A DNA stretch of 64,000 bases. Origin: an uncultured virus (IMG/VR IMGVR_UViG_3300030107_003216) (Duplodnaviria; Heunggongvirae; Uroviricota; Caudoviricetes). The notes under the pieces are model-generated. The model did not search any database. It was not told where the DNA came from and was given only the letters and a program-made list of their open reading frames with translations. Made by a program: the position numbers and the translations under genes. The DNA lies in IMG/VR virus record IMGVR_UViG_3300030107_003216, positions 1-64,000 of that record, one strand, 5' to 3'. Position 1 is the stretch's first letter; each line of letters starts with the position of its first letter. This document shows, in pieces, positions 2,140 through 20,471 of the stretch.

Positions 2140-2412
2140 ATGAGTTGGCGAGATATAGTAAAAGCCGAGAGAATAGACTTGGCCAATCCAATTCAATATC
2201 CGAGAAAAGATGTTGCTAAATTACTAAGGACAAACTTTTCTAAAACCGGATTTCATGCCGCAGTTAATAGAATTGTACCAGAATTAGAGGCACAGTTTCC
2301 ATATATAGACAAAAGAAGGGCCAAGCAATATCGAAAACTTGCGGCAGATATAAGAAAAATATCTTCAACCATTAAAAAATTAGTTACTGAATATGAGGGT
2401 CAAGAGGGATAA
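2140..2412 (+). CDS. Small hypothetical protein starting MSWRDIVK (W-motif cassette)
   Basis: ORF track; GTGAT upstream; shares N-terminal motif with neighbours. Confidence 0.75.
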   Translation: MSWRDIVKAERIDLANPIQYPRKDVAKLLRTNFSKTGFHAAVNRIVPELEAQFPYIDKRRAKQYRKLAADIRKISSTIKKLVTEYEGQEG

Positions 2413-2414
2413 AA

Positions 2415-2591
2415 ATGACTTGGCAAACTATACTAAAAGTAAAAACTCAGAAGTTAGATTCTGAAAAAGAGCAGTTTGAAAAAGTCAGTGAAGTAAAGTG
2501 TCCTAAATGTGAAGGAAAAGGATGCTCTCATTGTGATGGTAAAGGTTATCATAAACAAAAGAAAAGTCGAGGGAGAGGATTTACTGCATGA
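2415..2591 (+). CDS. 58-aa protein starting MTWQTILK with DnaJ-type zinc finger (CPKCEGKG-CSHCDGKG)
   Basis: Hand-translated; below ORF-track cutoff; its TGA overlaps the next ATG (ATGA). Confidence 0.75.
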   Translation: MTWQTILKVKTQKLDSEKEQFEKVSEVKCPKCEGKGCSHCDGKGYHKQKKSRGRGFTA

Positions 2592-2851
2592 GTTGGGAAA
2601 ATATAATTAAAAGAGGCCGAAGTTATGGCCGTAAAAAAAGAGCCGCCGAACATAACGCACCTACTCTTAAACAAATAGAAGAATTAGAGAAAGAGGTTGA
2701 AAAGCATTCTATTGAATTATCAACTTTAGGAACAAGTCAGCAAATTGAAAGATATGGTTTTGAAACACAGATGAACAAGGTTCGCAAAAAAGAAAAAGTC
2801 ATTCGTTCATTAGAAAGCAAAATAAAAGAACTAAAGGATAAACTGAAGTGA
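2588..2851 (+). CDS. Small coiled-coil protein starting MSWENIIK (W-motif cassette)
   Basis: ORF track; translationally coupled to previous ORF. Confidence 0.75.
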   Translation: MSWENIIKRGRSYGRKKRAAEHNAPTLKQIEELEKEVEKHSIELSTLGTSQQIERYGFETQMNKVRKKEKVIRSLESKIKELKDKLK

Positions 2852-2855
2852 TAAT

Positions 2856-4277
2856 GTGGAATTAGAAGCCTTAAATTTTGAACACCAAATGGATATGGAG
2901 TTATCTAAAAACTCTTTTCCATATTTTTTTCAAAATGTATTAGGGTTTGATTTTCCTTCTTATATTAGTGAATGGCATGACTTAATGAATAGCACACAAA
3001 GAACAGTTATTATTTGCAGTAGGGACCACGGTAAATCAGTATTTATGCACAGTTGGGTTGTTTGGAAATTAATTTTTGAAGAACCCCCATATCAAATGCT
3101 ATACATTTCATCTAACCAAAAACAGACATTGGTTCACATGAGAGATATTGATAAGATGTTTCAGCACCCCATGTTAAAAAAATACAAACCTGCAAGGGGT
3201 TGGGCTATTGGAAACATTACTCTAACCAATGGGAATCAGATTCTTGAGAGGTCAGTTGGTTCTCAGATTCGTGGATTGCACCCTCAAGAAATTATTATTG
3301 ACGACCCTTTGAAAGAGTTTAGTATGACAGGTATTCAAAAGGTAACTGATTGGTTTTATGGTGACATGATACCAACGCTTCACCATACGGCTTCTCTAAG
3401 AGTAATAGGTACTCCTTTCAGTTATACAGATATTTATGCTCAGTTGTCAGAAAATGCCGCATATACTGTTCGTACATATCCCTGCTTAAATTCCTTAAAT
3501 GAACCGCTATGGCCAGCCCGTTGGAATTACGATGCACTGATGGCTCGTAAGGCTGAAGTTGGTTCTCTCATGTTCACAAGAGAATATATGTGTGTACCAA
3601 TTTCAACAGGTACTTCTCTATTCAATCCAGAATATCTTGATAATGCTAAGAATAAAGATTTGGTATTAAAGCCAATGAAGCGTGAAGGCTACAAGTATTT
3701 CGTTGGAGTTGACCCTGCTATTTCAACCGATGGCGACTACAATGTAATTACTGTTTTAGAAATGGATGAGAATGAAAACAAATCCATTGTATATATTGAC
3801 CGAGCAAAGAATGTCGAGTTTAGAGAGAATATTCAGAAGGTCAAACTCATAGGTCAAATGTTTAGACCGGAGGCTATTCTTTTTGAAACCAACACTTTTG
3901 CAAAGTCTTTTACTCAAGAGTTGAGGCAGGTAGCAGATTTGAATGTGCATGACTTTAACACGACTCGAAGAAAGAAACAGGAAATCATTTTGAATCTTCA
4001 AATGACTCTTGAAAACTCAAAGATGAATTTCCCTTATGGTAATGAGGAAAGCAGAAGAGTAACTTCAACATTGATTGAAGAATTGTCTATGTTTGCTATT
4101 ACCGACAAGGGCAAGTTTGAAGGGATTGGCGCATATGACGACATGGTAATGAGCCTTGCATTGGCTAATGCCGCAACATACCAAGCCACAGATAACTTCA
4201 TACTACTCGATGATTTAGGTTTGTTTGATGATAAGATTTCTAACCGTTCTGGCAATACATTGGGGCTAAACTTTTGA
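2856..4277 (+). CDS. terL: Terminase large subunit
   Basis: Walker A-like SRDHGKS, Walker B IIIDD, VIGTP coupling motif, RNase H-like nuclease GVDPA...D and C-terminal YDDMVMSLALA. Confidence 0.93.
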   Translation: MELEALNFEHQMDMELSKNSFPYFFQNVLGFDFPSYISEWHDLMNSTQRTVIICSRDHGKSVFMHSWVVWKLIFEEPPYQMLYISSNQKQTLVHMRDIDKMFQHPMLKKYKPARGWAIGNITLTNGNQILERSVGSQIRGLHPQEIIIDDPLKEFSMTGIQKVTDWFYGDMIPTLHHTASLRVIGTPFSYTDIYAQLSENAAYTVRTYPCLNSLNEPLWPARWNYDALMARKAEVGSLMFTREYMCVPISTGTSLFNPEYLDNAKNKDLVLKPMKREGYKYFVGVDPAISTDGDYNVITVLEMDENENKSIVYIDRAKNVEFRENIQKVKLIGQMFRPEAILFETNTFAKSFTQELRQVADLNVHDFNTTRRKKQEIILNLQMTLENSKMNFPYGNEESRRVTSTLIEELSMFAITDKGKFEGIGAYDDMVMSLALANAATYQATDNFILLDDLGLFDDKISNRSGNTLGLNF

Positions 4278-4286
4278 GGTGATTAT

Positions 4287-6116
4287 ATGACAATAGAGCC
4301 AGAAAAGTTGAGAGAATATGCAGATAAAATTGAAGAAATTGATGCTGAAGAAGAAGAACTCAAAAATGAAATGCAAGATTTATTTACTGCTTCATTTGAT
4401 ACCTATGTTATGTCACAACATGAAGAAATTTCTAAATTATCAGAAACCCATGGAATTAATGCAACCGAGGCAAGAAAACAATTAGTTAATTTTCCTAATG
4501 AATACATTGTTCAAGACCAAACCGTTCCCGACCTAATTAAAAAAATGAGAAAGGCTCGAAGAAAATTAAAGGGAGAGCAAAGAATAAAAATGGCAAAGGC
4601 CATTGATACTATGATTGATGCTTATTCAGACCATTTACAAAAGTGTATAGATTCTATTACTTGGCTTAATCCATATCGAGTGCCTCTAAATAAAATGAGA
4701 TTTAATGAAAAGGATTTACATAAGTTAAACAAAATGACTGATGTTGAAACTCGAAGAGAAGTAGTTGATGCCTTGTGTAAATATTGGGAGGCTGAATTAG
4801 AACAGAACGGGATGGTTTATGGGAAAGAATATAGTGACTTATTCAAAGCCATGAGAGCCAGCAAAAAAGAATTCAGAACTGTTATTTCTAAAATCTCTAA
4901 TCAGTCTTTAACTAAATCTAAAAAAGATAGACAGAATGACTTCATTCTAAAAATGGTGTGTGAAAATCCGGGCATAAATGCTAAAGGAATACATGAAAGA
5001 ATGCCTTCTGATTTGTTCAAAATTACTAACAGTAATTCCATATCTAAAAACATAAACAAGTTAGATATTGCTTGTTACAATGGTAGTTATTACAAGATGC
5101 CAAGCATGTTAAAGAAGAATGTGTGGGCTTATACTGCGGCATTTATTGACTCTGATGGATATATTACTCTTGACCGTAATATGAATCCAAGAGTCGGATT
5201 AGTGGCAACAGGAGAAAGGGGTAAGACTTTCATGTATGAAATGCACAAGTCCATTGGTTTTGGCCGATTACATTTAGACCAAAAATCTCCACAGGACACA
5301 AGGCCGGTAAATCGTTTGAATTTCTATTCACAGGCCGATGTTTCTAAATTATTAACCAAGTGTTTGCCACATTTCCGAATGAAGAAGGGTAATGCTGAAT
5401 TGTTGTTAGAGTTAATTCGTATGAAAAAATCATACAAGAAGGCAGATTGGTACAAACAAAGATGTGATGAGATTTTCAAATTGATGAAATGGGAGAACCA
5501 TAAAGACCATGTTGGATTTGATTTCTCAAAGGAAAACATTAACTTAGATGATATTTCAAAATTACAAGGCAATTGTAAAATGTCGGTTATGGATGAGTTA
5601 GAAAATATTGGTGGTGCAATAGTGAAGCAACAAGAAAGGACTTTTGTAATTACTGAAGTTGATTATGAAACTGATGAATACGACCAAGATGAATTAGACC
5701 TGCCTCAACAAATGGCTGTAACTGCAAAAGAACTACTTATTGAAGAAGATGATGATACTGATTCCATACAAGATGAGTTAGTTAATTGGATTAGTGAAAC
5801 AACCGGCTGGTTAGTTAATGCGTATAGTTATTATGAAGTCAGAGCCGATGGGACAAAAATAGACATGGATGGAAACATACTAAAATCATCAAAAAGAGAA
5901 GTTAAACAAATCCAAAAGTTTGTTGAATCTCGATTACCCGTTAAAATCATCGGTGCAGAAATGGGTAGTAAGCATGTTAAATTAACAGTGCGTAATAATA
6001 AAACAGATACTACAAGGCTGGTCTTTGTGTCTGCTACCCCGAAAAAAACGGGGAGATATAATTTAGTTGTGCGTGACATTAGAAGAACATTTAGAGAAGT
6101 GGGTGAAGATTTATGA
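4287..6116 (+). CDS. Multidomain protein: helical N-terminus, wHTH, single LAGLIDADG domain, plus two appended C-terminal modules (the last HicA-like)
   Basis: WAYTAAFIDSDGYI LAGLIDADG motif; FILKMVCENPGINAKGI wHTH-like; C-terminal GSKHVKL...VFVSATP...VVRDIRR. Confidence 0.75.
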   Translation: MTIEPEKLREYADKIEEIDAEEEELKNEMQDLFTASFDTYVMSQHEEISKLSETHGINATEARKQLVNFPNEYIVQDQTVPDLIKKMRKARRKLKGEQRIKMAKAIDTMIDAYSDHLQKCIDSITWLNPYRVPLNKMRFNEKDLHKLNKMTDVETRREVVDALCKYWEAELEQNGMVYGKEYSDLFKAMRASKKEFRTVISKISNQSLTKSKKDRQNDFILKMVCENPGINAKGIHERMPSDLFKITNSNSISKNINKLDIACYNGSYYKMPSMLKKNVWAYTAAFIDSDGYITLDRNMNPRVGLVATGERGKTFMYEMHKSIGFGRLHLDQKSPQDTRPVNRLNFYSQADVSKLLTKCLPHFRMKKGNAELLLELIRMKKSYKKADWYKQRCDEIFKLMKWENHKDHVGFDFSKENINLDDISKLQGNCKMSVMDELENIGGAIVKQQERTFVITEVDYETDEYDQDELDLPQQMAVTAKELLIEEDDDTDSIQDELVNWISETTGWLVNAYSYYEVRADGTKIDMDGNILKSSKREVKQIQKFVESRLPVKIIGAEMGSKHVKLTVRNNKTDTTRLVFVSATPKKTGRYNLVVRDIRRTFREVGEDL

Positions 6117-6119
6117 AGT
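6103..6119 (+). repeat. 17-bp direct repeat copy 1 (GTGAAGATTTATGAAGT)
   Basis: Identical to 6409-6425; covers the RBS/start of ORF 6113. Confidence 0.9.
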
Positions 6120-6412
6120 GGTTTAATATTTTGAAAAGCGGGAAAAAACCGTTTCCATTTAGTGTAATTAAAAATTATATTTTAGACCAATTGTATGATA
6201 TGGAATCGGGTGATGTAAAATATATGAATCAGTTGATTGAAGAATATCCTAAATATCATACAGAGAGAAAACATAGCACATTTACTAATTGGTGGAAACA
6301 TAGAGGGCCGTCTTTTTATAGAAATTACATGCCAAGAATAGCGAGAAATGCAGGTGATTTTATGGTAACTTCTGATGTTTCTTCGGGTCAAGTTAAGGTC
6401 GAGAGGAAGTGA
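6113..6412 (+). CDS. Small hypothetical protein starting MKWFNILK (W-motif cassette; possible winged helix)
   Basis: ORF track; ATGA overlap with upstream gene; flanked by the 17-bp direct repeat. Confidence 0.75.
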   Translation: MKWFNILKSGKKPFPFSVIKNYILDQLYDMESGDVKYMNQLIEEYPKYHTERKHSTFTNWWKHRGPSFYRNYMPRIARNAGDFMVTSDVSSGQVKVERK

Positions 6413-6425
6413 AGATTTATGAAGT
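6409..6425 (+). repeat. 17-bp direct repeat copy 2 (GTGAAGATTTATGAAGT)
   Basis: Identical to 6103-6119; covers the RBS/start of ORF 6419. Confidence 0.9.
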
Positions 6426-6568
6426 TCCAATACTGCGGTCTATGTTATACTACACCCGACTTGCGACCACATGGTTTTTGTGAAAAGTGTTGGGTAGCAC
6501 ATGGTAGCCCTAAGTCTATGAAAGGGTTGATAACTGAAAAGGATTTAGAAAAATCACAGGAGGTTTAA
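6419..6568 (+). CDS. 49-aa zinc-finger protein (CGLC...CEKC)
   Basis: Hand-translated MKFQYCGLCYTTPDLRPHGFCEKCWVAHG...; fills the gap before the portal gene. Confidence 0.65.
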   Translation: MKFQYCGLCYTTPDLRPHGFCEKCWVAHGSPKSMKGLITEKDLEKSQEV

Positions 6569-6572
6569 TGAT

Positions 6573-8207
6573 ATGGCTAAAAGAAGATTTTCCGTAACTA
6601 ATTTATTTAGGAGGCAAACTCCTAAACCTGCTGATAGAAAAATCTTCAACATGGGTATTCAAGAGAGGCAGAATCAAAATATGATGACTGCCCCTCTAAT
6701 CTATCATCTAATTAATCAATCAGTTATTGCAAGGACTTGTATTACTCAATTGAAACAGGAGATATTTAGAAGAGGTTATCTTTGGGAAAAGGCATACGAA
6801 GCAAAGTGCAATAATTGTGGTAAAATACATCAAAGACCCGTAGCAGAATGTTCTCGATGTGGTAGTACAGATTTGAAAACTCCTGATGTTAAGCAATTAG
6901 AATATGCTGAAAAGTTTATTGAAGGGTATGTCAATAAATCAGAACAATTGTTCATTGATGTTCTTAGAGAATTAGAAGATGATTTGAATATTATGGATGA
7001 TGCGTATATTGTCTTAGTAAAAGAATACTTCATAGATGGTAACGGTAAAATTAGAATGCACAGAATCAAAGAAGTGTATAGAGGCGACCCTGTTACTATG
7101 TATATTTACACTGATGAGTTAGGTGAAAGAGGTACTACGGGATTCACTTGTGTAAATCATAGAAACATGCTTTCAACAGAACCGCATGAAAGATGTGAAA
7201 CTTGCGGTGCTAATCTATTCCCTGTTCATTATGTCAATAGAGTAAATGGTGACGACCAATACTTCTTGAAGGGAGAAGTATTGCATTTCAGTAAATATAG
7301 TCCTTCTCGACTGTATGGTATGTCACCTGTTATTACTCTTTACAATAATATAATGACTCTAATTGCTATGGAAAACTATGTTAATTCTTCCTATACTAAG
7401 AGCCGAATGCCTAAAGGTTTGTTGGCAGTACAGACAAGAAATATGGATTCAATGAAATCTTTTTGGAGAGCAGTCAAAGAAAAGATGGAACAAGACCCTC
7501 ACTTTATTCCTGTAATGGGTATTGAGGCAGAAAATGGAAAGGGTGCAGTCGAATGGATTAAATTCATGGATAGCCTCAAGGAAATGGATTATGTTTCAGT
7601 CAAGGATGATTTGAGAGATAGAATATCAGCATTCTATGGTGTTAGTAAAGTATTCATGGCCGATAACACTACAAGTGGAGGTTTGAATAACGAAGGTATG
7701 CAGATTCTTGTAACTAATCGAGCAGTACAGATGGCTCAAAATGTATATAATGAATATGTATTCCCATTCCTTGTAAAGCAATTTGGAATTACAGATTGGA
7801 AATTAAAACTCCCACCAAGCGAAGAAGAAGATGAAATTGCTGTTCTTCGTAAAAGAGAGATTGAAGTAAATATTGCTGCGGCCACTAAGAATTTAGGATT
7901 TGAAGTTGATATGGATGAGGATGGCCAATTTACATTTAAGAAGCCAGAACCAAAAGCACCCGAAGGCGGTGAATCACCAGATGAAGAGGGAAAGGTTGAA
8001 TTAGACCAATACGCTGGAACTAACATAGATGCTTCACAGATGGGCCAAATGCAAGAACAAATGATGCAAAGCAAGCCTCAAGAAAATCCACCGGCAACAA
8101 GAAATAAACCATCAATGAGCGAAGGGCCGGATAAAAGATTAGCAGGATTACCAAAGGATGCTGGAAATCAGAATGTTGATAGAAGAACAGAAAGAAGAGT
8201 TGGTTGA
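6573..8207 (+). CDS. Portal protein with zinc-ribbon insertions
   Basis: EVLHF...LYGMSPV, MPKGLL and RISAFYGVS are portal-like motifs; lies downstream of terminase; GGAGGT RBS. Confidence 0.88.
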   Translation: MAKRRFSVTNLFRRQTPKPADRKIFNMGIQERQNQNMMTAPLIYHLINQSVIARTCITQLKQEIFRRGYLWEKAYEAKCNNCGKIHQRPVAECSRCGSTDLKTPDVKQLEYAEKFIEGYVNKSEQLFIDVLRELEDDLNIMDDAYIVLVKEYFIDGNGKIRMHRIKEVYRGDPVTMYIYTDELGERGTTGFTCVNHRNMLSTEPHERCETCGANLFPVHYVNRVNGDDQYFLKGEVLHFSKYSPSRLYGMSPVITLYNNIMTLIAMENYVNSSYTKSRMPKGLLAVQTRNMDSMKSFWRAVKEKMEQDPHFIPVMGIEAENGKGAVEWIKFMDSLKEMDYVSVKDDLRDRISAFYGVSKVFMADNTTSGGLNNEGMQILVTNRAVQMAQNVYNEYVFPFLVKQFGITDWKLKLPPSEEEDEIAVLRKREIEVNIAAATKNLGFEVDMDEDGQFTFKKPEPKAPEGGESPDEEGKVELDQYAGTNIDASQMGQMQEQMMQSKPQENPPATRNKPSMSEGPDKRLAGLPKDAGNQNVDRRTERRVG

Positions 8208-8208
8208 T

Positions 8209-8850
8209 ATGACTTGGCAAAATATACTAAAGATGAAAAACCCTGTTTTTGGGTCGATGATGGAACCTTTGCAGTTTAATTCACAAATGAAATATAAATT
8301 GCAAAGAATGTGTAGGGCTGGTAAAGAACACCTTGTAAAAAAATTAGAGCCTTTTAATAAAACAGTTAAAGTACATAGTATGCAATTGGATGAGAAAAGA
8401 GATACCAACCTTTTGTCATTTTGCACTGCTCATGCTTATCTTAATGATTATGAAATGGATGCCATGTATGGTGATGTTCCTTTCCCTTCGGAATTTAAGG
8501 GCGTAGTTAAAAGAATTAAAGAAGTATTCAATGAATCAATTAGAATTTGCCAAGATGCTAAATCTGCTAAGACCGAAGCAGGGCGCAAGGAAGAATACAT
8601 TAAACTCATAAAAGATGTTGTGGAGGGAACTGATAGAAGGAGTAAATTAGACCTTCTTAATGAAAAATTTGCTTATGACGATTTTGAAAAGTATATTCCT
8701 TTAGAAGATAGAACTTGGAAAGGAGATTATAATTACGCTTGGAATTTCAAGTTTGATGAAGATGAAATAAAAGAATATCCTCCAAAAATGGGAGAAACAA
8801 CAAAGGAATACAATGAAAGATTAGTTGATGAAGGAGTATATTTATTTTAG
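8209..8850 (+). CDS. Hypothetical protein starting MTWQNILK (W-motif cassette)
   Basis: ATG at 8209 directly follows the portal stop and is preferred over the track start 8158; 22 of the first 23 nt match the start of ORF 2415. Confidence 0.75.
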   Translation: MTWQNILKMKNPVFGSMMEPLQFNSQMKYKLQRMCRAGKEHLVKKLEPFNKTVKVHSMQLDEKRDTNLLSFCTAHAYLNDYEMDAMYGDVPFPSEFKGVVKRIKEVFNESIRICQDAKSAKTEAGRKEEYIKLIKDVVEGTDRRSKLDLLNEKFAYDDFEKYIPLEDRTWKGDYNYAWNFKFDEDEIKEYPPKMGETTKEYNERLVDEGVYLF

Positions 8851-8862
8851 AAAGGTGATTAA

Positions 8863-9087
8863 ATGACAGAAGATTTAAGACAAAAAGAAATAAGATTGAA
8901 AAAAGAATTGGCACAAGTGAAAGCAATAAACGCTAACGCTGATACCAAATTAAGAAAGACAAAGGACTTCAGCGTTGGAGTACCGCAAGATACTACACAT
9001 AAGGCTAAACCTGTTTCAGCAGATGTTCCCGATGTAGTTACTCTGCCACCAAAGCACAGAAACAAAAAAGAAAATATTCCATTCTGA
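8863..9087 (+). CDS. Small basic hypothetical protein
   Basis: ORF track; AGGTGAT RBS. Confidence 0.7.
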   Translation: MTEDLRQKEIRLKKELAQVKAINANADTKLRKTKDFSVGVPQDTTHKAKPVSADVPDVVTLPPKHRNKKENIPF

Positions 9088-9096
9088 GGTGACTAA

Positions 9097-11184
9097 ATGT
9101 TTTTTGAATTGTCTAAAGATAAATCTTTACTTTATGTTCTAAGTAAAGTTGAATTGGATGATGAAACAAGAGAGTTAGTTACTGCTAAGGCAAGTGCCGG
9201 AGAAATCAAGAAGTCTTTGATTAAAAACATTAATCCTTCTAATATGTTTCAATATAGAAAGTATATTGATATTGCTAAAAAAGAAGAAGATTATGGTGAA
9301 TTAGAGGGAGATGTTCGCTATCGTGGTGCGGCTACTTCAAGGCAAGCACAAGTTGATGCAGGTAAAGGGAGAGGAAATATTTCAGAAGCCGAACAACGAA
9401 GATTAATGGCCGAAGGTTCAGCAGAAGCAATTTCAGCAGAAGCAAGGCAAAAAACCGGAGAAGCAAATAGGCAGAATTCACTTCAGAGAGAAATTCTAAC
9501 CTATGAAGAATTAATTCCTAAATTAAGAGAAATGATTAGGACTATTGAAATATCTGATGTTCTTTCAGACCAAAAACTAATTTCTGGCCAAAGTCCATAT
9601 AAAAATGTGACTAAAACTAAATCTGAAAGACTCATAACTACTTTGGTCGCTCTAAAGAAAGAAGGTAATTATCTGATTAAAAGAGCAAGTGAATTTACTG
9701 AAGGCGGAGATTTTCCTATTTATTCTGGTAAAATGTATAAAAAGAAAAAGAATCAATATACAAAGAAAAAAAGCAAAAGAGAAATAAACATTCACGATAT
9801 GAACAATACTCTGTTAGAATTATCTAAGGCTAAATTAGATAACCATGATGTTGATTTATTGACAACGCTTGGTGAAATTCATTTAGAGAAGTTTAATGCT
9901 GAAGCAAAGGCATTACAAAATATTCCGAGCGTAAGAAGAGATTTGAGTACCTTGCGACAAAGACTCAAAGATAGAGATACTAAAGGCCATGTTGAAACAT
10001 ACAAAAGAGCGAGAACAAATCTTCGCCAAACAATTAAAGGTGCTAAAAAATACTTAGAATCTTTAGAAAATAATTTAGAAGAAATTAAACAATATAGTAA
10101 AAATTTGGAAGAATTACCAGAAGAAACTATTCGTCAAGAAATAGAAGATAGAATTGCTAATGAAGTAAAAGAGATTAAAGTTAAACTATCTAATCTTGTT
10201 GTGAGAGAAACAGAAGAAGGCAGAAAAATAATTGTTCCTAAAAGAAAAGTAACTGCTCGTAAAGATAAACAAGGAAAAAGAATATTTGAAGAAGGAACAG
10301 AAAGACCATCTCCTGACCCAAGAGTAAAAGAAACTTCTTTAGATATTGCCGACCTTGGAGAAATTGAAGATGTTCCAGAATATTTTACAGAATTACTTGA
10401 CAGAATACAAGAAATGAGAAACAATTTACCTAAAGAAATAAAAGAAGAAATAGGTAAAGTATCAGATAGATTAGAAGAAAATAACAAAAAAATAGATGGG
10501 CTATTATCTAAATTCAATGTTAAATTTTTGAGAGATTTAAGCGACATAGTTGAAAAAACGGATGCTCTTATTGATAAAACGGATGAAGTAAAATTACCAT
10601 CTAAGAGTTTATCATCGTCTTTGACAGAATCGAGCAGAATGCTAAGTAATCTTGTTGATTCAATTAAAAAACTATTTAGAGAAATAGAAGATATGGGAGA
10701 AGAAGCCAAAAAAGAATGGAAAGATTGGCTTAAACAAGGTCAATCAAAAAAGCCTTCTGCTCATTCTTCTGATATGGTAGGAGTTGATATGAAAGGAATA
10801 AAAGACCTTTTGGTTATTGTACCAGACATGGCAACAAAACAATTAGAAGATTTAGGATTGAAAGAATCTGATATTAAGCAAGCCAATATTCTTGTTGGGG
10901 AAATTACAGGTTTAATTCCTGCAATTAATGATGCTATTAAAAGAACAGAAGATTCTATACCAAGTGCAGAAGTTGATACTACGGTAACTCCTGAACAGAG
11001 AAAAAAAGATTTCGAGGAAACAAGAGAATATACCACTCGACCCGAAGTTGGCAGAAGAGAATATGATTATAGTGAGGCCGGAGAATCTTGGTTGGAAGGA
11101 GAAAGTGAAGAAGATAGACAAAGATATTTACAAAGCCAACAAAGAGCAAAAGACAGAAAAAAAGCAAAGGAGGAAGAAGAATGA
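9097..11184 (+). CDS. Large charged coiled-coil protein, possible internal head protein
   Basis: 695-aa E/K-rich ORF in the head module; GAGGTGA RBS; function inferred from position only. Confidence 0.55.
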   Translation: MFFELSKDKSLLYVLSKVELDDETRELVTAKASAGEIKKSLIKNINPSNMFQYRKYIDIAKKEEDYGELEGDVRYRGAATSRQAQVDAGKGRGNISEAEQRRLMAEGSAEAISAEARQKTGEANRQNSLQREILTYEELIPKLREMIRTIEISDVLSDQKLISGQSPYKNVTKTKSERLITTLVALKKEGNYLIKRASEFTEGGDFPIYSGKMYKKKKNQYTKKKSKREINIHDMNNTLLELSKAKLDNHDVDLLTTLGEIHLEKFNAEAKALQNIPSVRRDLSTLRQRLKDRDTKGHVETYKRARTNLRQTIKGAKKYLESLENNLEEIKQYSKNLEELPEETIRQEIEDRIANEVKEIKVKLSNLVVRETEEGRKIIVPKRKVTARKDKQGKRIFEEGTERPSPDPRVKETSLDIADLGEIEDVPEYFTELLDRIQEMRNNLPKEIKEEIGKVSDRLEENNKKIDGLLSKFNVKFLRDLSDIVEKTDALIDKTDEVKLPSKSLSSSLTESSRMLSNLVDSIKKLFREIEDMGEEAKKEWKDWLKQGQSKKPSAHSSDMVGVDMKGIKDLLVIVPDMATKQLEDLGLKESDIKQANILVGEITGLIPAINDAIKRTEDSIPSAEVDTTVTPEQRKKDFEETREYTTRPEVGRREYDYSEAGESWLEGESEEDRQRYLQSQQRAKDRKKAKEEEE

Positions 11185-11543
11185 CAACATGGGATTATTA
11201 CGGAGAAGGAGAAGAATTTATTCTAAAAGAGAAAAAAGATTCTCCTAAAGATATTCTTGATTCTTTAGATGCTAAACAAAAAAAGAGAATCAAAAAGACA
11301 ATTCAAGCGGCTTCTCCAACAGAATTTTTTGGACAGGATTTTACCAAGTTAGGTGAATTAATTGATACTCTCAAAGAATTAGATTTAACTAAATCAGATA
11401 AAAAACTGAATAAGAAAATGAAATCTATGGATGAGCGCAATATTGATATTGTAGCCACCGCTACAAAACTTCGCAAGGAATATGAATTGCTATATCGCCA
11501 ATTGTATGATTTAGTATATGGCAAAAAGAAAAAGGAGGACTAA
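11181..11543 (+). CDS. Hypothetical helical protein of the head module
   Basis: ORF track; coupled to upstream gene. Confidence 0.7.
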   Translation: MTTWDYYGEGEEFILKEKKDSPKDILDSLDAKQKKRIKKTIQAASPTEFFGQDFTKLGELIDTLKELDLTKSDKKLNKKMKSMDERNIDIVATATKLRKEYELLYRQLYDLVYGKKKKED

Positions 11544-11545
11544 TT

Positions 11546-11785
11546 ATGTGGAGAGATTTGATTAAAGTTGATGAAGATAGTAAAGATGAAAGATACAAAA
11601 GATTCAAACAAGCCCAACGAAATTGGAGAATGGGTGATAAAAGAAGAGGTGCTACTCGAAAACCCGACCAGCCAAAATATAGGTGTGCTATGTGCGGAGT
11701 AGCATTAAGTAAATATAATAAAGAACACCAAAAAAATAAGATAAATTATTGTAAAACTTGTAAAAAAGTGAGAGAAAAGAGATGA
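11546..11785 (+). CDS. Basic zinc-finger protein starting MWRDLIK (W-motif cassette)
   Basis: CAMC...CKTC; GGAGG RBS. Confidence 0.7.
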   Translation: MWRDLIKVDEDSKDERYKRFKQAQRNWRMGDKRRGATRKPDQPKYRCAMCGVALSKYNKEHQKNKINYCKTCKKVREKR

Positions 11786-11789
11786 TATT

Positions 11790-12038
11790 ATGACAGAAGA
11801 AAAAACAATTAATGAAGAATTATTGCAGATAATTAAAGCCTTAACTTCAAAAGTCGAGGCATTGGAAAAAACAATTTATGCAAAAGATAGCATTCTTATG
11901 AAAGCCGGTTTCGTTGTAACGGATAGCCCAACACCTGCTATGGATAATTCTATTGGTACTCCAACAGGAATGCCAAAGGATATTTCAACAATGGATTGGT
12001 CGGAAATACATAAGATGGTTGAAAATGTTGAGGGATAA
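11790..12038 (+). CDS. Mini scaffold-like protein resembling the C-terminus of the prohead protease/scaffold
   Basis: Coiled coil followed by ILMKA...PTP...ISTMDWSEIHKMV, versus ILKA...LPT...IADMDWNDIHKMV in the protease. Confidence 0.6.
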   Translation: MTEEKTINEELLQIIKALTSKVEALEKTIYAKDSILMKAGFVVTDSPTPAMDNSIGTPTGMPKDISTMDWSEIHKMVENVEG

Positions 12039-12040
12039 AT

Positions 12041-12277
12041 ATGCCAGAAAGAGTAACTAAAGAAGAAAGAGTAGTTAGCCTTGCTATTGAAAAAGCGAGA
12101 GCCGCAAAAGAAGAATTGTCACTTTCATTAAATGACAATAACAGAAGTCCAGAAAAAGCGGATTCTGAAGTTGTTAAAGTAAAGCGACCTAAAGCGGAGA
12201 ACGCTAAAAACCTAATACCTAAGAACCAAGATAAAGAAGGTTATGGATTAGGCGGGCAAATGGTTGATTACGATTAG
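12041..12277 (+). CDS. Small hypothetical protein
   Basis: ORF track; tightly packed in operon. Confidence 0.65.
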   Translation: MPERVTKEERVVSLAIEKARAAKEELSLSLNDNNRSPEKADSEVVKVKRPKAENAKNLIPKNQDKEGYGLGGQMVDYD

Positions 12278-12288
12278 AAGTGATATAG

Positions 12289-14802
12289 ATGAAATTAGGT
12301 TCTATCGAAAAAGATAGACAACCTTCTATCGAAATTATTCGTTTGTTTGAAAAAACAAGGGTTGCCTATCTATCAGCAAGGCACGACCCCAAAGAATATG
12401 GGAGTCGCTGGCGTAAAGCAGTTGAATTGATAGAAGAATCTTATGAAGAATTAGATGCAGCAGGTAAAGAATTAAAGAATTTTATTGATGCTGAGGATTT
12501 TGATGATAAAGAAATTAATAATGTTGAATCAAATCAAGCAAAGGAATTATATGAAAAAATTAAGTTAGTTAGATATAATTCTGATTTAGTTGCTGACCCT
12601 TTCGCTAAAAGATTCAAAGGTAGTGTTCTTGAGGAATTAATGAATAATCCCGAATCTATGGTTAAATTCGTGCATTATGCGTTAAGGAACAACACTAAAG
12701 CATTAACTCCTTCAGCATATGCAATAAAAGACATGGAACCCGACGATTTAACGGAGGGTTTAGAGGGTCTTGACCTACAATCTGACGACATAGCCCTGTA
12801 TATTATTGAGCATTATGGGGATGGAAAAGACTCAAAGAAGGTCGAAAAGAAGGTAAAAGCGGCCATGGATATGTTGCAGTTAATCTTTTTCTCTCAACAT
12901 GAAGAAGAAGAATGGGAGGAATTGAAGGACATCGAGATGAAGAAGTCTGAAAAGAAGTCCGAAGATGAGAAGTCTATTAGTGATTTCATTATTCCCAATA
13001 AACCAATGTATCGCATATTTGAGATTGACGACCTAAAAGAATTAAAAGGCTTTAGTGGCCAATGGTATGTTCAAGAAAAATATGATGGTATGCGTGTGCA
13101 ATTGCACAAGTTAGATAACTCAATAAAGGTGTATTCGTATAATAAGAAAAACATTACTGATAAGTGTAAAGACATTGTTAGTGAATTGAGAAAGAAACAT
13201 TTCGGTGACTGTATTTTAGATGCTGAATTGATTTTATTTTCCGGTGATGATGCACTGCATCGAGCAGATACTATTGCTCATGTATTCAAAGATAAATACA
13301 AAGATGCTAAACTAAGATGTCATGTTTTTGATATTATGCGACATGATGAGCAGACTTTATTAGATGAAGAATTAGAAAATAGAATGGGTATTATGTTCAA
13401 CAATTATTCTGCTCATTCTTCTGAACATTTAGTTTTCCCATCAAAAAAAGATACTCGAATGGCAGACAGTCTAAAAGATATTGACGAGTATGCTAAGAAA
13501 ATAATGGACATGCCGACTGCTGAAGGAGTTGTAATTAAAGACGCTACTTCAACATATTATTTAGGTGCGAGAAAGAATCCTAAATGGGTTAAGTGGAAAA
13601 AGTTTGTTGATATAGATGTTATTGTATTAGATAAAACAAAGACTAAGAGTAATATGAATTCTTATGTTCTTGGTGTTGATATTGGTACTGAAGATATGGA
13701 TAATAAATTCATTAAAGAAATAGACGGTAAAAAATACATGAATGTTGGTAAAGCATTGAATACTAAAATCTCTGCCAATGTCGGTGATATTGTTCGTGTT
13801 AAAGTGGATGAAGTAAAAAAGACAGGCGACAGATATACTTTGTATTCTGCTAAAGTAATAGAGATTCCCGAAGTTGAAATGCCAGACAAATTAGTAACTT
13901 TGGAATTTTTATCTCAAGATACTAAAAAGTCATTAAACTATAATGTGGATGCTTTGAAAAAAGGAGTACAGATTACAGACCATATACATGGAGAAGCCAA
14001 CCTATTGATTAAGTTTGATACAGAAGGATTGGTATTCTATTCTTTTGAAGAAAATAATCTTATGGCGAAGAATGCTCTTTTAGATATTGATGTTTGGAAA
14101 ACACAAGTTGAAGAGATTATGAAAACTAAACAGGCTAATTTAACATTAACCATATTTAGATATTTGAAAGACAATGGGCCTAAGCCTGTAAATGAATTGC
14201 ATAATTACTTAATGAAAGAGGCATCAGATTTATACAAAGACATCTTAGAGGGTAAAGCACAGAAATTAAAAGAATGGGCGAATCTAAGAGATGGTATTAC
14301 TTTTGTAAATAATAAACTTCAAGCAGATGAAGATAAGATACTTCAAGAAACTGAAGAAATTAAAAAAGAATATAAAACTCCTAAAGAAAAAAGAAGTGGC
14401 CCATTCAAAATATATGCAAGACAAGACGACAATGTTACTCTATCAATTAAATTAGATGATGAAACAATTAATTGGACTATTGATTTAGAGAACGAAAAAG
14501 AGTTGTTTGATTTATTTGGTGCGGCTGGAAAGTACCCTGCTGAAGTGTCCTCTAACATAGAAAAGGAAAAAGTCATTGATAGCGGTACTGTTGAATTAGG
14601 TGTCCAAAGACATGGGTATCACGAATATATGTTGGATGGAAATAAATTCCAAACTAAGTTGCATGTTAGATACTTGCCTGTTAAGGGAGAAAAGATGTGG
14701 CTTGCATGGACAGGGTATGAACAAAAACCAGCAGACCCCAATACAGATGAGGGCATATGGAATATTTACGAAGATAAGTATTCTAAAGTGAAAATACCGT
14801 GA
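12289..14802 (+). CDS. lig: ATP-dependent DNA ligase with N- and C-terminal extensions, located in the head module
   Basis: Motif I EKYDGMR, III LDAEL, IIIa VFDI, IV EGVVIK, V WVKWK, followed by an OB fold. Confidence 0.88.
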   Translation: MKLGSIEKDRQPSIEIIRLFEKTRVAYLSARHDPKEYGSRWRKAVELIEESYEELDAAGKELKNFIDAEDFDDKEINNVESNQAKELYEKIKLVRYNSDLVADPFAKRFKGSVLEELMNNPESMVKFVHYALRNNTKALTPSAYAIKDMEPDDLTEGLEGLDLQSDDIALYIIEHYGDGKDSKKVEKKVKAAMDMLQLIFFSQHEEEEWEELKDIEMKKSEKKSEDEKSISDFIIPNKPMYRIFEIDDLKELKGFSGQWYVQEKYDGMRVQLHKLDNSIKVYSYNKKNITDKCKDIVSELRKKHFGDCILDAELILFSGDDALHRADTIAHVFKDKYKDAKLRCHVFDIMRHDEQTLLDEELENRMGIMFNNYSAHSSEHLVFPSKKDTRMADSLKDIDEYAKKIMDMPTAEGVVIKDATSTYYLGARKNPKWVKWKKFVDIDVIVLDKTKTKSNMNSYVLGVDIGTEDMDNKFIKEIDGKKYMNVGKALNTKISANVGDIVRVKVDEVKKTGDRYTLYSAKVIEIPEVEMPDKLVTLEFLSQDTKKSLNYNVDALKKGVQITDHIHGEANLLIKFDTEGLVFYSFEENNLMAKNALLDIDVWKTQVEEIMKTKQANLTLTIFRYLKDNGPKPVNELHNYLMKEASDLYKDILEGKAQKLKEWANLRDGITFVNNKLQADEDKILQETEEIKKEYKTPKEKRSGPFKIYARQDDNVTLSIKLDDETINWTIDLENEKELFDLFGAAGKYPAEVSSNIEKEKVIDSGTVELGVQRHGYHEYMLDGNKFQTKLHVRYLPVKGEKMWLAWTGYEQKPADPNTDEGIWNIYEDKYSKVKIP

Positions 14803-14804
14803 GT

Positions 14805-14812
14805 TTTATATA
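14805..14812 (+). promoter_or_regulatory. Candidate archaeal TATA box (TTTATATA) for the protease-capsid operon
   Basis: Sits in one of the few intergenic gaps, about 30 nt upstream of ATG 14842. Confidence 0.45.
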
Positions 14813-14832
14813 CTGAACGCAAATGATAGGGG

Positions 14833-16074
14833 TTGAGAAGAATGGTATCGGCAGTAATGGCTACTCGTTCTAATGATTTCAGAATACTCAAAAGCGACGA
14901 TTTAATGATTGGAGGATATGCAAGCATCGAAATCGTTGATAAGCAAAATGACTTAATCACCCTCAAAGCACTACAAGAAGCAGTAAATGGCTATATGGAG
15001 AACCCAAAATTTAGAAATGTAATGACAAATCATTCAAATGTTCAAGTAGGAGAAGTAGTAAAATCATATCGAGATAAGAATGGAAAACTATGGAAAACAG
15101 AAGTTGATGATGTTGGATTCTTTGTAGTAATTAAATTAAGAGATGATATAGAAAAAGCCAAGGAAATTAATAGAGGCATTAGAAAAGGTTCATTGAGGTC
15201 ATTTAGTATTGGAGGACAAGCAATTCATAAGGTGAAGAAAAAGCATCCAGAATTAGGTGAATATAACGAAATCAGTAAATTGGAATTACATGAAGTAACA
15301 ATCTGTGAAAAAGGAATTAACCCCGAAGCAAAATTTGATATTCTAAAACAAGAAAAAGAGGCGAAAAACATGAGTAAATTGGAAAAAGCATTGGCAGAAT
15401 TAGACACTCTAATGGAGGAAGTTAATATGCTACGAAAAGAAGAAGAAGAAATAGATAAGGACATGCCGGAGGAAAAAGAAGCGGCTATGCCAGAAATGAA
15501 AGAAGCAGGTCATGGCGCAGGTCACGATGACAAAGAATTGACAGATACAGAAATGGCTGAATATATGGATGAAACAGGAGAGTTTGATGATAGAAAGAAT
15601 GCGGCAGTGCTTTCAACTCTTGATGGCGCAGGTGTCGAAATTGGCGAGCCAGCAAACCGTATAGTAATTAGCGGTGGCAAACCAACTGCAACTGATATGC
15701 CGGTAGTTAAGGCATTTGATAACAGAGAATTGGAAACACTTGATTTGTCAGTTTCTAACATTGAGAAAGCATATGAGGCTTTCCGCCAAGAGCAATTGGA
15801 AAAGATTGCATACGATAATCTTCAAAAGAGATTTGAAGCAAGATTCGAGTCTGAAAAGAACACAAAAGAATCTATTCTTGCTAAGTCGCAATATGATGCG
15901 GCTTCAGAAATTGCATCCCTAAAGGATGAATTTACACAACTACGAAAGTCTTTGACTGCTGAAAAGGAAACAATCCTAAAGGCACAAGAAGAATCTTCAG
16001 TCACACTACCAACATTGGATGAAATTGCAGATATGGATTGGAATGACATTCACAAGATGGTTGGGGGAATTTAA
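14833..16074 (+). CDS. HK97-family prohead protease fused to a C-terminal scaffold region
   Basis: IGGYASIEIVDKQND, NH, RSFSIGG, LHEVTICEKGINPEA; acidic coiled-coil C-half; immediately upstream of MCP. The start may be ATG 14842. Confidence 0.9.
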   Translation: MRRMVSAVMATRSNDFRILKSDDLMIGGYASIEIVDKQNDLITLKALQEAVNGYMENPKFRNVMTNHSNVQVGEVVKSYRDKNGKLWKTEVDDVGFFVVIKLRDDIEKAKEINRGIRKGSLRSFSIGGQAIHKVKKKHPELGEYNEISKLELHEVTICEKGINPEAKFDILKQEKEAKNMSKLEKALAELDTLMEEVNMLRKEEEEIDKDMPEEKEAAMPEMKEAGHGAGHDDKELTDTEMAEYMDETGEFDDRKNAAVLSTLDGAGVEIGEPANRIVISGGKPTATDMPVVKAFDNRELETLDLSVSNIEKAYEAFRQEQLEKIAYDNLQKRFEARFESEKNTKESILAKSQYDAASEIASLKDEFTQLRKSLTAEKETILKAQEESSVTLPTLDEIADMDWNDIHKMVGGI

Positions 16075-16075: not shown

Positions 16076-17428
16076 ATGAGTTATATTAACACAATAGCAG
16101 ATTTGGAAGCACAAACATACGGAACAGGCGCAAGAGGCGGATTCAACAACCAATTGTTGAAGCAAGTCGGTGCAGTGGCAGGTATTCATACAGGCCATGA
16201 TGTATCTTTAGGAGTCGGTAGTGGTACTACTGCGGCTTCTTCTCTTGGTGCATTGTATAACCAAGTTTATGGACAAAAAGTTTGGTCTATGCTAAACCGT
16301 GAATGTAATGCTCTTTCAGTAATTGCAAAGCGACCATACACTTCAAGTGGATGGAGAGTCCTAAGTGAGCGACCTGCTGGTGGTAGCGGTAATTTCTTGG
16401 CAATTGATGTTGAGGGTTCAAAAGATGCGGCTAATCTTGGTTCAACAACTCCAAGAGCAGATTTGATTGGTGGTGTTCCTGAAAATGCTGGATTAGATAC
16501 TGTTGCTGATGGATTGGCTTCAATTGCACCAAAATACGAGCAATTGTTCACCAGCCCAAAAATTGTTGCACATCAATTTGAATTCAGTGAATTGGCTATG
16601 GAAATGGCACAAATTGACGATGGAATTGGCGATATTAGAGCGCAAATGCGTGAAGATATGGGTAAGCATCACGCTGAAGTACAGAATCTAATGCTTGTAA
16701 TGCCATTGGAATTCTATAATGCTGATACAAATGTATCGAGTTCTGCAACAGTTGATACAATAGAGAGAAACTATACTTCTCTAAACAAGGTTGTTTCTTC
16801 TAAAGAAGAATTAGATGCTATGGCTACTGCAAACCTTCTAACAAGTGCTACTGCTAACGAAGTCAACAATCTATACGGAAAGGACCGTACAAGTGCTTCT
16901 TATCTTGATGCACAAGTTACATTCGGTGATTCATATGCAAGTGCAGATGCTCGCCAATTGACACTAACTGTTCTAAACGAAATGATTAGACTACTTCGTG
17001 TTGCTGGTGGTTCACCAAAGGTTATTCTAACAGGATATGACACACTACAAACTATCTCTGATTTGCTACAAGCACAAGAGAGATTCATGGATAGAAAGGA
17101 AATTGTTCCAACTGTAAATGGTGTTCGTGGTGTTAAAGGTCAAGAAGTCGGATTCCGTGTATCAACATACTACGACATTCCTATGATTCCTGTTGCGGCT
17201 ATGGCTTCAACCGGAGTTAATTCGGCTTGTATTAGTGATATGCTATTCCTTGATACAGACCATCTATGGATGAGCGTTATGAAACCAACTCAATACTTTG
17301 AGGATGGTATTAGCAACGGAAACCCATTCGGTGTCGGTACTCTTGGAAACAAGGCTCTTTACCGTACAATTGCTGAAGTCGGCTGTTCATACTTCAAAGG
17401 ACAAGGTAAAATTACCAACCTTCTGTGA
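16076..17428 (+). CDS. Major capsid protein (HK97 fold)
   Basis: Follows the protease; 450 aa from ATG 16076 (track start 16019 overlaps the protease); biased high-expression codon usage; ends QGKITNL. Confidence 0.88.
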   Translation: MSYINTIADLEAQTYGTGARGGFNNQLLKQVGAVAGIHTGHDVSLGVGSGTTAASSLGALYNQVYGQKVWSMLNRECNALSVIAKRPYTSSGWRVLSERPAGGSGNFLAIDVEGSKDAANLGSTTPRADLIGGVPENAGLDTVADGLASIAPKYEQLFTSPKIVAHQFEFSELAMEMAQIDDGIGDIRAQMREDMGKHHAEVQNLMLVMPLEFYNADTNVSSSATVDTIERNYTSLNKVVSSKEELDAMATANLLTSATANEVNNLYGKDRTSASYLDAQVTFGDSYASADARQLTLTVLNEMIRLLRVAGGSPKVILTGYDTLQTISDLLQAQERFMDRKEIVPTVNGVRGVKGQEVGFRVSTYYDIPMIPVAAMASTGVNSACISDMLFLDTDHLWMSVMKPTQYFEDGISNGNPFGVGTLGNKALYRTIAEVGCSYFKGQGKITNLL

Positions 17429-18508: not shown

Positions 18509-18916
18509 GTGTTTATCTTGGCAGTATTAAATAAAGACACACGGTTGATTATGACAATTTTATTTGTCGGTGCGCTTAGTGGTGCAAATGTATTTTTTTA
18601 TGCTAACTATGGCATAACATTCCCACACGGAGTATTGGCCCATTCTATCTTGTTTGGTCTAATGACAGTGGGTGCAATTATGATTATGAAAGCAATATTC
18701 GATTTGGCACTTAATGACCGAATTGAAATGTGGCTTCTTGATAGAAAAATTGCGGCCTATTGGGAGAGAAAAGCAAGAGATGAGCAACAACTAAGAAAGA
18801 TGCAAGAATCTGCAAAACAGTATTCATCATCTTTTAATCCATATGGAGTTGCACCAACCGTTGAAGCCGATGATAATACAGTCGGTGCAGACTTTTTAGC
18901 CGCTACTCTTCAGTGA
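18509..18916 (+). CDS. Two-TM membrane protein with C-terminal coiled coil
   Basis: Hydrophobic segments LIMTILFVGALSGANVFFYA and VLAHSILFGLMTVGAIMIM. Confidence 0.7.
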   Translation: MFILAVLNKDTRLIMTILFVGALSGANVFFYANYGITFPHGVLAHSILFGLMTVGAIMIMKAIFDLALNDRIEMWLLDRKIAAYWERKARDEQQLRKMQESAKQYSSSFNPYGVAPTVEADDNTVGADFLAATLQ

Positions 18917-18925
18917 GGCGGTTAA

Positions 18926-19141
18926 ATGCTTGCAGACATAATGGGCCTAACTGATAATGATTATATCTATAATCAGTCAAGAGCGCATTCCGCAGACATG
19001 CTTTTTTTCAAAATGAGAGCATGGTTTTGGGGAACATGCGCTACTTTGTCAGCATTCTTTATTGGGAATATAATGGGTGTTTTTGACATCAATATATTAG
19101 GCTGGATATTAGACACATTCTGGCATTCTTGGGAGGTCTAA
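18926..19141 (+). CDS. Small membrane protein
   Basis: AWFWGTCATLSAFFIGNIMGVF followed by amphipathic ILGWILDTFW. Confidence 0.65.
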   Translation: MLADIMGLTDNDYIYNQSRAHSADMLFFKMRAWFWGTCATLSAFFIGNIMGVFDINILGWILDTFWHSWEV

Positions 19142-19812
19142 TATTGTCAGTAATGACAGGATTTGCTATACTTGTTGGAGAAGCGATGATAGGTTTTTGG
19201 AAAAAAATTTATGCGATTAACTTCGGCATTTATGGTGCAACTATGGTTGGTAAAACAACATTAAGTAATCAACTAAGAACAAGAGGCGAAGTACCGCAAA
19301 TAAATGAACGGACAGTAGGATTACACAGGGCTTCGAGAAAAACAGTAAAAATTGATGGAGATTCTCATACAGTTAAAAGTGCTGATGTTGGCGGTGAAGC
19401 AATCTATTGGAAAGAATGGGTAAAAGATATGCAAGGGCGTAAAGTCAAGTATGTTATATTTATGATAGACCACAGACATTTAGATAATTCTTCAAACTTA
19501 GACCATCAAGTAGCATGGAAATTTTTAGTTGATACAATTGTTGCATCTCGGTGGCCCACAGGCAGAAAGAAAAAGGAAAAAGATTATCCTATGGCAGTCG
19601 GAATATGGGCTAACAAATATGACATATGGGGAGAACAGTACCCATTGGCAGAAGGATTAACCATGGATAAACATGAAATATTTGAACCTTTCAAATACGG
19701 TATGCGGCAACTGAATGATAAAGGAATACCTTGTTTCAAATATATTGTATCTGCTAAATCAGAACCCGAAATGGTGTATAAAGGAATCACTTCAATGATA
19801 AAGGATTATTGA
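19129..19812 (+). CDS. Arf/Sar-like small GTPase with N-terminal hydrophobic helix
   Basis: G1 GATMVGKTT, G2 RTVG, G3 DVGGE, VIFMID strand, G4 WANKYD, G5 SAK. Likely start is TTG 19144 after GGAGGT. Confidence 0.88.
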   Translation: MGGLILSVMTGFAILVGEAMIGFWKKIYAINFGIYGATMVGKTTLSNQLRTRGEVPQINERTVGLHRASRKTVKIDGDSHTVKSADVGGEAIYWKEWVKDMQGRKVKYVIFMIDHRHLDNSSNLDHQVAWKFLVDTIVASRWPTGRKKKEKDYPMAVGIWANKYDIWGEQYPLAEGLTMDKHEIFEPFKYGMRQLNDKGIPCFKYIVSAKSEPEMVYKGITSMIKDY

Positions 19813-20471
19813 TTATTATGTATAACAACCAACTAATAGGACAAAACGGACTGCCAACGGTTTTAATGACTCCGTTGAAAGCAGCAAGAGCAAGTGGAAT
19901 AGTAACTGAATACAAGTTTATTGCACATAAACCAAAAAAACAACTGAATGAATTGATTAAGGTATTAAAGCCCGAACCTAAGAAATTGTTGTTTTTGAAA
20001 TACGGAAAAAAATTCAATCTAAAAGATAGATGTGTAGTTTGCGGCTTTCATCATATTTGGGAGGCTGGCGATTATATGCGACCCCCTATTCCTTTGGATG
20101 GAGTAGTAAAAGGGCGACCATTAGCAGGGACATATTGCCCTAAGCATGCGTCTATGTTCACGCAGTTAGAAATGCTACAACAAACAATACTCGCTGATAA
20201 ACATGGTCTTGCTTTTGCAGCCTTCAAACCAAGAATGCCTAAGATACTGAAAAGTGGCCCTGTAACTCATTTGAGTAAAGAGGATATTATATCTTTGACT
20301 GCAAGCGGTTATTTAATAAAGCCACCGACATTAGGAGATAATAGGAGTGCAACCAACGAAGCGATAGAGATTGTTGGGGAAATAAATATTCTAACTGATA
20401 GACTTAATTATTTAATGATTAAAGAAGGAGTTAAGCCTCAAAATGATGGAAAAGAAACTAAGGAGGAATAA
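19809..20471 (+). CDS. Cys/His metal-binding protein of the GTPase cluster
   Basis: CVVCGFHH...YCPKH; coupled to the GTPase stop. Confidence 0.65.
   Translation: MIIMYNNQLIGQNGLPTVLMTPLKAARASGIVTEYKFIAHKPKKQLNELIKVLKPEPKKLLFLKYGKKFNLKDRCVVCGFHHIWEAGDYMRPPIPLDGVVKGRPLAGTYCPKHASMFTQLEMLQQTILADKHGLAFAAFKPRMPKILKSGPVTHLSKEDIISLTASGYLIKPPTLGDNRSATNEAIEIVGEINILTDRLNYLMIKEGVKPQNDGKETKEE

Follow-up and report, generated by a model that had tools for sequence, protein, structure and literature searches.

A lysine-ending tag on exchangeable late proteins of ocean archaeal viruses: a candidate capsid-targeting and cleavage propeptide

Scaffolds of the P22 gp8 type bind coat protein by a C-terminal helix, and encapsulins load their cargo through short peptides. 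The mature capsid chain of HK97 starts at residue 104, after K103, and we know of no shared tag on HK97 accessory proteins. T4 IPII and IPIII start with MKTYQEFIAE; the T4 internal proteins IPI–IPIII carry a capsid targeting sequence (CTS) that is taken off by gp21 (PMC9026906, PMC9958956), its residues 4 and 7 serving for targeting and its residues 8 and 10 governing cutting (PMC9026906). P1 DarB carries at its N-terminus a signal for capsid targeting that needs 10–30 residues, and the P1 Dar proteins, in the account of PMC9024508, are without a common N-terminal consensus. The subject here is a tag with the consensus MxWxxILK found on late proteins of an uncultured virus (IMG/VR record IMGVR_UViG_3300030107_003216; genome G000, circular map). 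The stretch analysed, referred to as the window, is bases 1–64000 of the 92,582-base-pair (bp) record. The virus is a magrovirus, an ocean archaeal virus, and the window is part of its genome.

The fuller form of the tag is M-[TSN]-W-x-[DNE]-[IV]-[LI]-K. A six-frame scan of the window with the pattern M.?W..[ILVM].K gave matches at 2140, 2415, 2588, 6113, 8209, 11546, 11991 and 16033, all on the plus strand, and no further sites. Six of these are N-terminal, on open reading frames (ORFs) which start just after, or overlap, the preceding stop codon; those at 11991 and 16033 are C-terminal, in scaffold proteins. Outside the window another 14 tagged genes lie at G000 82815–91835 (L082 315–9335), directly upstream on the circular map, with nine arranged in tandem; the total for the genome is then 20. 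At the gene starts of this genome the strict motif occurs 15 times, against about 0.015 expected by chance. With the tag removed, the 20 proteins have no pairwise BLASTP match to each other at E<0.01. None of the tail and replication genes has the full tag. [Two near misses without the I-L-K end are present on the minus, replication strand, at 59552 (MTWENMTR) and 42046 (MKWENTYL).]

Five genomes, G000 and four near-complete relatives, were compared, using heuristic gene calls that miss a number of short genes whose ribosome sites are weak, including that for the mini-scaffold. On the late strand 85 of 312 genes begin with the tag, and on the opposite strand none of 352 does (Fisher p 1e-31); the individual genomes have 20, 22, 19, 11 and 13 tagged genes. 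Not one of the 85 is present in all five, against 139 of 227 untagged late-strand genes. The slot after a conserved 221-amino-acid gene illustrates this turnover: it is occupied by a tagged gene in 5/5 genomes, with five different cargos. All but two of the 85 are within 32 kilobases (kb) upstream of the capsid gene; elsewhere in contigs of relatives, tagged genes are also inserted between genes for membrane, GTPase and neck proteins, or follow the capsid gene as one block. Three more distant genomes have 9–15 pattern matches each, confined to a single strand, and the tag is kept across clades whose capsid proteins are about 47% identical. In a DNA pattern scan of the whole collection at least 130 stretches, which were left unclassified, match. 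No match was present in the controls HCTV-1, vir335, Syn9 and T4, or in two distant capsid-related contigs that are 68–78% complete. The tag is real, is widespread in magroviruses and is far beyond chance. [A further arrangement is seen in one relative (G001; L083 499–3989, minus strand), where six tandem paralogous tagged genes have an additional common motif after the tag.]

A first-pass annotation of the window had listed the eight sites, described the tagged ORFs as otherwise unrelated, seen no tail or replication gene with the full motif and expected enrichment in head modules over other modules. The scan recovers every site where it was placed, the stripped proteins bear out the lack of relationship, the replication strand offers near misses alone, and the strand counts among relatives agree with the expected enrichment. 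Its confinement of the tag to the head module fits the 83 of 85 genes upstream of the capsid gene, and is slightly too narrow for the other insertion places in relatives.

Conservation of the tag is at the level of protein. Among 156 distinct tagged proteins, codon choice for I-L-K is as varied as in the background, with Leu found in all six of its codons and Lys encoded by AAA 110 times and by AAG 43 times. Since these codons are free while the residues are fixed, it is on the residues that conservation acts. The cargos (median length 111 amino acids), many of them small, of low complexity or very basic, are diverse: 243 tagged proteins fall into 102 single-link clusters. Pfam and PHROG scans covered 146 of 177 representatives (145 of 176 clusters plus a fused module, the 31 shortest being omitted); 8 were Pfam-positive and 10 PHROG-positive, nearly all of unknown function. 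[One tagged cargo, L157:6683–7510, has a PAP2 phosphatase-family domain and another, L070:1234–1989, has pentapeptide repeats.] A hydrophobic stretch is present in 1 of the 156, against 15 of 260 and 12 of 161 proteins in controls. The idea that the tag is a membrane anchor or signal peptide was rejected because the tag is charged and the cargos lack hydrophobic stretches.

The I-L-K with which the tag ends has counterparts in the head proteins. The HK97-fold major capsid protein (16076–17428, plus strand) has a predicted maturation site, LLK at 16154–16162, whose Lys, K29, is kept in 108 of 108 rows of its alignment, and K-A-D after the N-terminal helix is kept in a deep 110-row alignment reaching down to 26% identity; residues 23–48 are low-confidence in the structure model. 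The prohead protease, of the S78 (HK97) type and fused to scaffold (14842–16074, plus strand; PF04586), has ILK on both flanks of its protease domain, at 14884–14892 (K17) and 15340–15348 (K169). Over 101 rows, K17, K169 and K348 each score 0.99, and K182 and K309 1.00. In the mini-scaffold-like protein (11790–12038, plus strand) the near-invariant sites are IIK (11829–11837) and LMK (11895–11903), with K16 and K38 at 1.00 of 64 rows. Hydrophobic-Lys sites number 9 in the protease-scaffold, where 2.2 are expected, and 3 in the mini-scaffold, where 0.5 are expected. The protease belongs to the Peptidase_S78/XkdF-like family and its His and Ser align with those of HK97 gp4. The end of the tag thus resembles the near-invariant Lys sites of capsid propeptide and scaffold, which are likely the cuts to be expected of an HK97-type protease. 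A sequence search of the PDB gave no close solved capsid protein or protease, so the mature N-terminus of a near relative could not be read there.

The explanation that we favour, with a probability of about 0.6, is that the tag is a two-part propeptide for capsid targeting and cleavage, which acts like the T4 CTS and is unrelated to it in sequence. Each genome has about 10–22 dispensable late genes that open with M-[TSN]-W-x-[DNE]-[IV]-[LI]-K, a sequence maintained at the protein level. The peptide would form a short amphipathic helix, in which I comes three residues after W, that docks the protein on the interior of the prohead, the partner being scaffold or coat protein. To judge from conservation and from HK97, the S78 protease would then cut after the Lys and free the cargo in the head, at what is presumably the same hydrophobic-hydrophobic-Lys site as in the scaffold and at K29 of the capsid propeptide. 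Cargo genes appear to be swapped by recombination at a 25–45 bp cassette of ribosome site, start codon and tag. Some of the cargo might, with less assurance, be ejected along with the DNA to act in counter-defence or takeover, while very basic modules may simply bind the packaged DNA. That part of the cargo enters the host at infection is given slightly less than even odds.

Tags within ORFs are a further feature. Sixteen distinct W-x-x-h-h-K/Q motifs, of which one or two left in the count are probably due to chance, occur inside ORFs without Met. Several sit exactly at the start of a module that elsewhere is a stand-alone tagged gene, and a second hydrophobic-x-K site is present no more than three residues before the internal tag in 8 of the 16, against 11 of 270 control Trp. 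Internal tags could let polyproteins be cut into separate cargos. In the window, a 609-amino-acid endonuclease-like ORF (4287–6116) has a C-terminal extension (5619–6116, plus strand) with modules behind IVK (5619–5627) and ILK (5877–5885). The second fused module is a stand-alone tagged gene in L067. By eye, the module at 5883–6116 resembles HicA; it has no Pfam or PHROG match and its ESM Atlas matches are weak (scores 0.79–0.81).

The resemblance to T4 is one of layout. In both, a short N-terminal peptide is carried by proteins that have no relationship to each other, are dispensable and often basic, and differ from one relative to the next; an aromatic residue and a hydrophobic one, spaced by three, precede a site of prohead-protease type (a predicted one in the magroviruses), and targeting and cutting would be arranged alike. 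There is, however, no sequence identity: the tag W-x-x-I-L-K ends in Lys and peptides of the T4 type, aromatic-x-x-F-x-x-E as in MKTYQEFIAE, in Glu. The magrovirus is an archaeal virus whose S78 protease is of HK97 type and fused to scaffold, whereas gp21 is the type of a Glu-specific protease; magrovirus genomes have 10–22 tagged genes each, and here the function is predicted from sequence. P1 DarB is likewise packed into the head, as a non-structural protein, by an N-terminal peptide, but the Dar proteins have no consensus. With HK97 the virus shares the protease family (aligned His and Ser), the fold and, as predicted, a cut after Lys (K103 in HK97), and differs in a predicted capsid propeptide of only 29 residues and a separate scaffold. 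No description of the tag was found in the literature searched, magrovirus papers included; supplements and subscription papers, among them the Aoguangviridae proposal, were outside its scope.

T4-like cyanophages share some cargo modules with magroviruses. A 45-amino-acid module matches 365 phage records, nearly all from cyanophages. It follows W-type tags in magroviruses and Glu-rich sites in five Kyanoviridae proteins, two of which have F-x-x-F-x-E just after the module. Genes that neighbour these proteins start with MKSYNEFISE, MKNFQEFQE, MKSFTSFFTE or MKKFSAFLKE, resembling T4 IPII and IPIII; the module pattern matched 5 of the 7 cyanophage loci examined. In S-CREM2, gp160 and gp137 hold two homologous cargo modules and gp111 a zinc-finger-like stretch. 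These three proteins appear in the virion proteome (PMC10665884, Table 3), as do gp154 and gp136, which have CTS-like starts (PMC10665884). [Several genes of T4-like cyanophages have CTS-like starts (L336 7301 and 24608; L198–L201), and two of these, including that for the cytidylyltransferase, are in the S-CREM2 virion table.] That the modules in common bear a Lys tag in one group and a Glu tag in the other suggests convergence in how cargo is loaded, and an exchange of genes between viruses of archaea and those of cyanobacteria.

Several observations weigh against a targeting and cleavage propeptide. The position that follows the tag Lys is free to vary (A29 K24 N20 E19 V15 R13 of 156), while at core sites it is mostly A, S or Q. 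A few tags end in L-Q-K or L-H-K, or carry D, G or R at W+3 (residues being counted from the Trp). The enrichment for Lys sites, which tail and replication genes lack, is absent from portal, terminase and cargo interiors as well. Known counter-defence families are not represented among the 8 Pfam-positive of 146 representatives, and five tagged relatives, at 650–810 amino acids, are large for ejection. Peptides are not assigned to individual modules in the S-CREM2 proteome table, and the authors of that table accept co-purification as a possibility (PMC10665884). Related modules are untagged in the Roseobacter phage CRP-7, a Vibrio phage and S-TIM5, so the modules can work without such a tag.

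The first-pass annotation had called the tag scaffold-mimicking. On that proposal, here a sub-case of the favoured explanation, the tag copies the C-terminal helix of the scaffold and competes for the same pocket in the coat protein. Tags and the known scaffold and encapsulin peptides are alike as short peptides that would bind an HK97-fold shell from inside, and the tails at 11991–12014 (MDWSEIHK, mini-scaffold) and 16033–16056 (MDWNDIHK, protease-scaffold) look like such helices. Tag and tail have M-[STDN]-W-x-[DE]-[IV] in common, and the tail is the older, as a distant virus lacking tag arrays, L112, ends its scaffold in MTWREVED; the tag could accordingly derive from the tail. The tail motif, W-x-x-I-[HN], which reads WxxIHK at both window sites, is nevertheless related to the tag and distinct from it, the common part being only the helix start [STDN]-W-x-[DE]-[IV]. 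These residues are also compatible with a generic helix capping box; they may reflect docking by the same face, descent from one source or such a generic helix start. All 74 distinct tails have either H or N at W+4, a position that is L, I or V in tags. The tag pattern had demanded a hydrophobic residue there; a separate search that allowed His, covering L001–L080, found no N-terminal tag with it. Lys is present in just 0.54–0.56 of tail rows (scaffold K405 0.54 of 101 rows, mini-scaffold K75 0.56 of 64). Nor do tag and tail change together: tags are unaltered in clades with altered tails. In 88 more distant loci the tail was seen in 56 and its Lys was absent from 55 of these; 20 of the 55, which are related loci and hence not independent trials, also bear tags, and 42 of the 46 tags there end in Lys. 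From encapsulin and P22-type peptides the tag differs further in being N-terminal or internal and in having L/I-K where tails have H/N-x, and the capsid, with terminase (2856) and portal (6573), is that of a true virus. A co-fold of the capsid protein with a 35-residue tagged N-terminus (unrelated tagged starts being aligned) scored 0.00 in two runs in which controls were not folded, and counts for neither side. A copy of the scaffold helix is, on this balance, unlikely. Of the earlier proposal, mimicry holds for the helix start and fails at W+4, at the Lys end and in co-variation. What the codon, conservation and distribution data support is a transferable tag, kept as protein, that is found on a variable set of late proteins and ends in what is likely a Lys site for the prohead protease.

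A tag that docks somewhere other than the prohead interior, at a membrane or assembly site, a viral chaperonin or a host protein, with the Lys as part of the binding face, is decidedly unlikely. It would accommodate a short amphipathic helix followed by a free residue, and the insertion of tagged genes among membrane and GTPase genes in relatives (L008). It leaves aside the equivalence of the terminal I-L-K to conserved head-protein Lys sites, the frequent bracketing of internal tags by such sites, and the Glu-type sites that homologous modules have in T4-like phages, in virion-listed proteins.

Less probable again is a protease substrate and nothing else, the proteins being activated or destroyed late, or being filler degraded with the scaffold, with no delivery. 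The F-x-I-L-K flanking the protease domain does resemble W-F-D-I-L-K tags, and small, low-complexity or very basic cargos are numerous. The rapid turnover of more than 100 cargo clusters would, however, suit conflict with the host better than filler, and the cargos include enzymes and folded repeats (PAP2, pentapeptide).

Features of the DNA bear on how the tag spreads. Its 5′ half is stereotyped as DNA, Lys at W+1 being AAA in 50 of 51 cases against 70 of 111 and 164 of 224 (63–73%) for Lys in other gene starts. The array of the genome outside the window has six 44-bp repeats of 64–86% identity that cover ribosome site, start and tag, and ATGA overlaps occur at 17 of 78 tagged genes. Copied DNA of this kind is the likely route by which the tag spreads, not the reason for its conservation. 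That the tag is an artefact of it, new genes having been picked up behind a duplicate of a ribosome site and start codon, with the peptide as neutral by-product, is very improbable and as a sole cause largely refuted, given that I-L-K is fixed while its codons vary and that the motif persists across clades and inside ORFs without Met. When the same array was compared with 4 of 21 listed sequencing runs, contigs broke near tags, with loose ends at L082 5230–5246 in 4/4; contig joints with sides of about 25–40 bases were not counted, being probably cross-matches between tag repeats. Contigs from one RNA run cover parts of the array, which is not a sign of transcription.

The six tagged ORFs of the window are all on the plus strand. 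The first, 2140–2412 (90 amino acids; tag MSWRDIVK, 2140–2163), has a homologue in one of the four relatives compared. It is followed by 2415–2591 (58 amino acids; MTWQTILK, 2415–2438), with a CxxC zinc-finger-like module that resembles the S-CREM2 virion protein gp111 (54% over 35 amino acids, E 2e-8), and by 2588–2851 (87 amino acids; MSWENIIK, 2588–2611), which has a homologue in 0 of the 4. Next are 6113–6412 (99 amino acids; MKWFNILK, 6113–6136) and, adjoining the 3′ end of the portal gene, 8209–8850 (213 amino acids; MTWQNILK, 8209–8232), whose product has no Pfam, PHROG or ESM Atlas match. The last is 11546–11785 (79 amino acids; MWRDLIK, 11546–11566). A stretched tag-like start, with W at residue 3 and ILK at 14–16, is present at 11181–11228 (plus strand) on a conserved 120-amino-acid head-module protein, K16 being found in 0.89 of 36 homologues. 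[A protein in L104 that looks similar to this one begins MWESQLIK.]

In the window, late genes are on the plus strand and replication genes on the minus strand. The head module has genes for terminase (2856), portal (6573), ATP-dependent ligase (12289), prohead protease/scaffold (14842) and capsid protein (16076), the closest annotated relative of the last being the capsid protein of halovirus HCTV-1. A genome within 65–100 kb and a halovirus-like head module with ATP-dependent ligase and nuclease are what mark magroviruses, the viruses of Poseidoniales; in PMC5434244 the ligase and nuclease are described as embedded in the head module, as they are here, and the host as uncultured (2017). The ligase (12289–14802), whose place in the magrovirus head module was previously remarked on (PMC5434244), could itself be a virion protein. 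At 18509–21112 there is a small-GTPase-like gene among membrane proteins, the place where tagged genes insert in L008. An assembly gap of 10 N (37992–38001) splits a large tail gene (31778–39104), and the relative G004 has two differing versions of one tail gene at its record ends (25–1677 and 94523–96136), possibly from a chimeric assembly.

If the propeptide explanation is right, a code for capsid targeting exists in viruses whose hosts, uncultured archaea of the ocean, are very abundant. More than 100 families of unknown genes would become candidates for injected host-takeover or counter-defence proteins, pointing to the defences of the host, and exact cut sites are predicted which could be checked against marine virus metaproteomes already available. 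A further use for a tag of eight residues could be the loading of HK97-fold particles. A broader proposal, tentative and held short of even odds, is that magroviruses independently evolved a T4-like programmable payload on an HK97-type head, in which an eight-residue Lys-ending tag marks 10–22 swappable proteins per genome, made singly or as self-cleaving polyproteins, and modules pass between marine viruses of archaea and of bacteria when their tag is replaced by one suited to the resident protease. Were that so, the tag would mark, from sequence alone, an ejected counter-defence arsenal against marine group II archaea.

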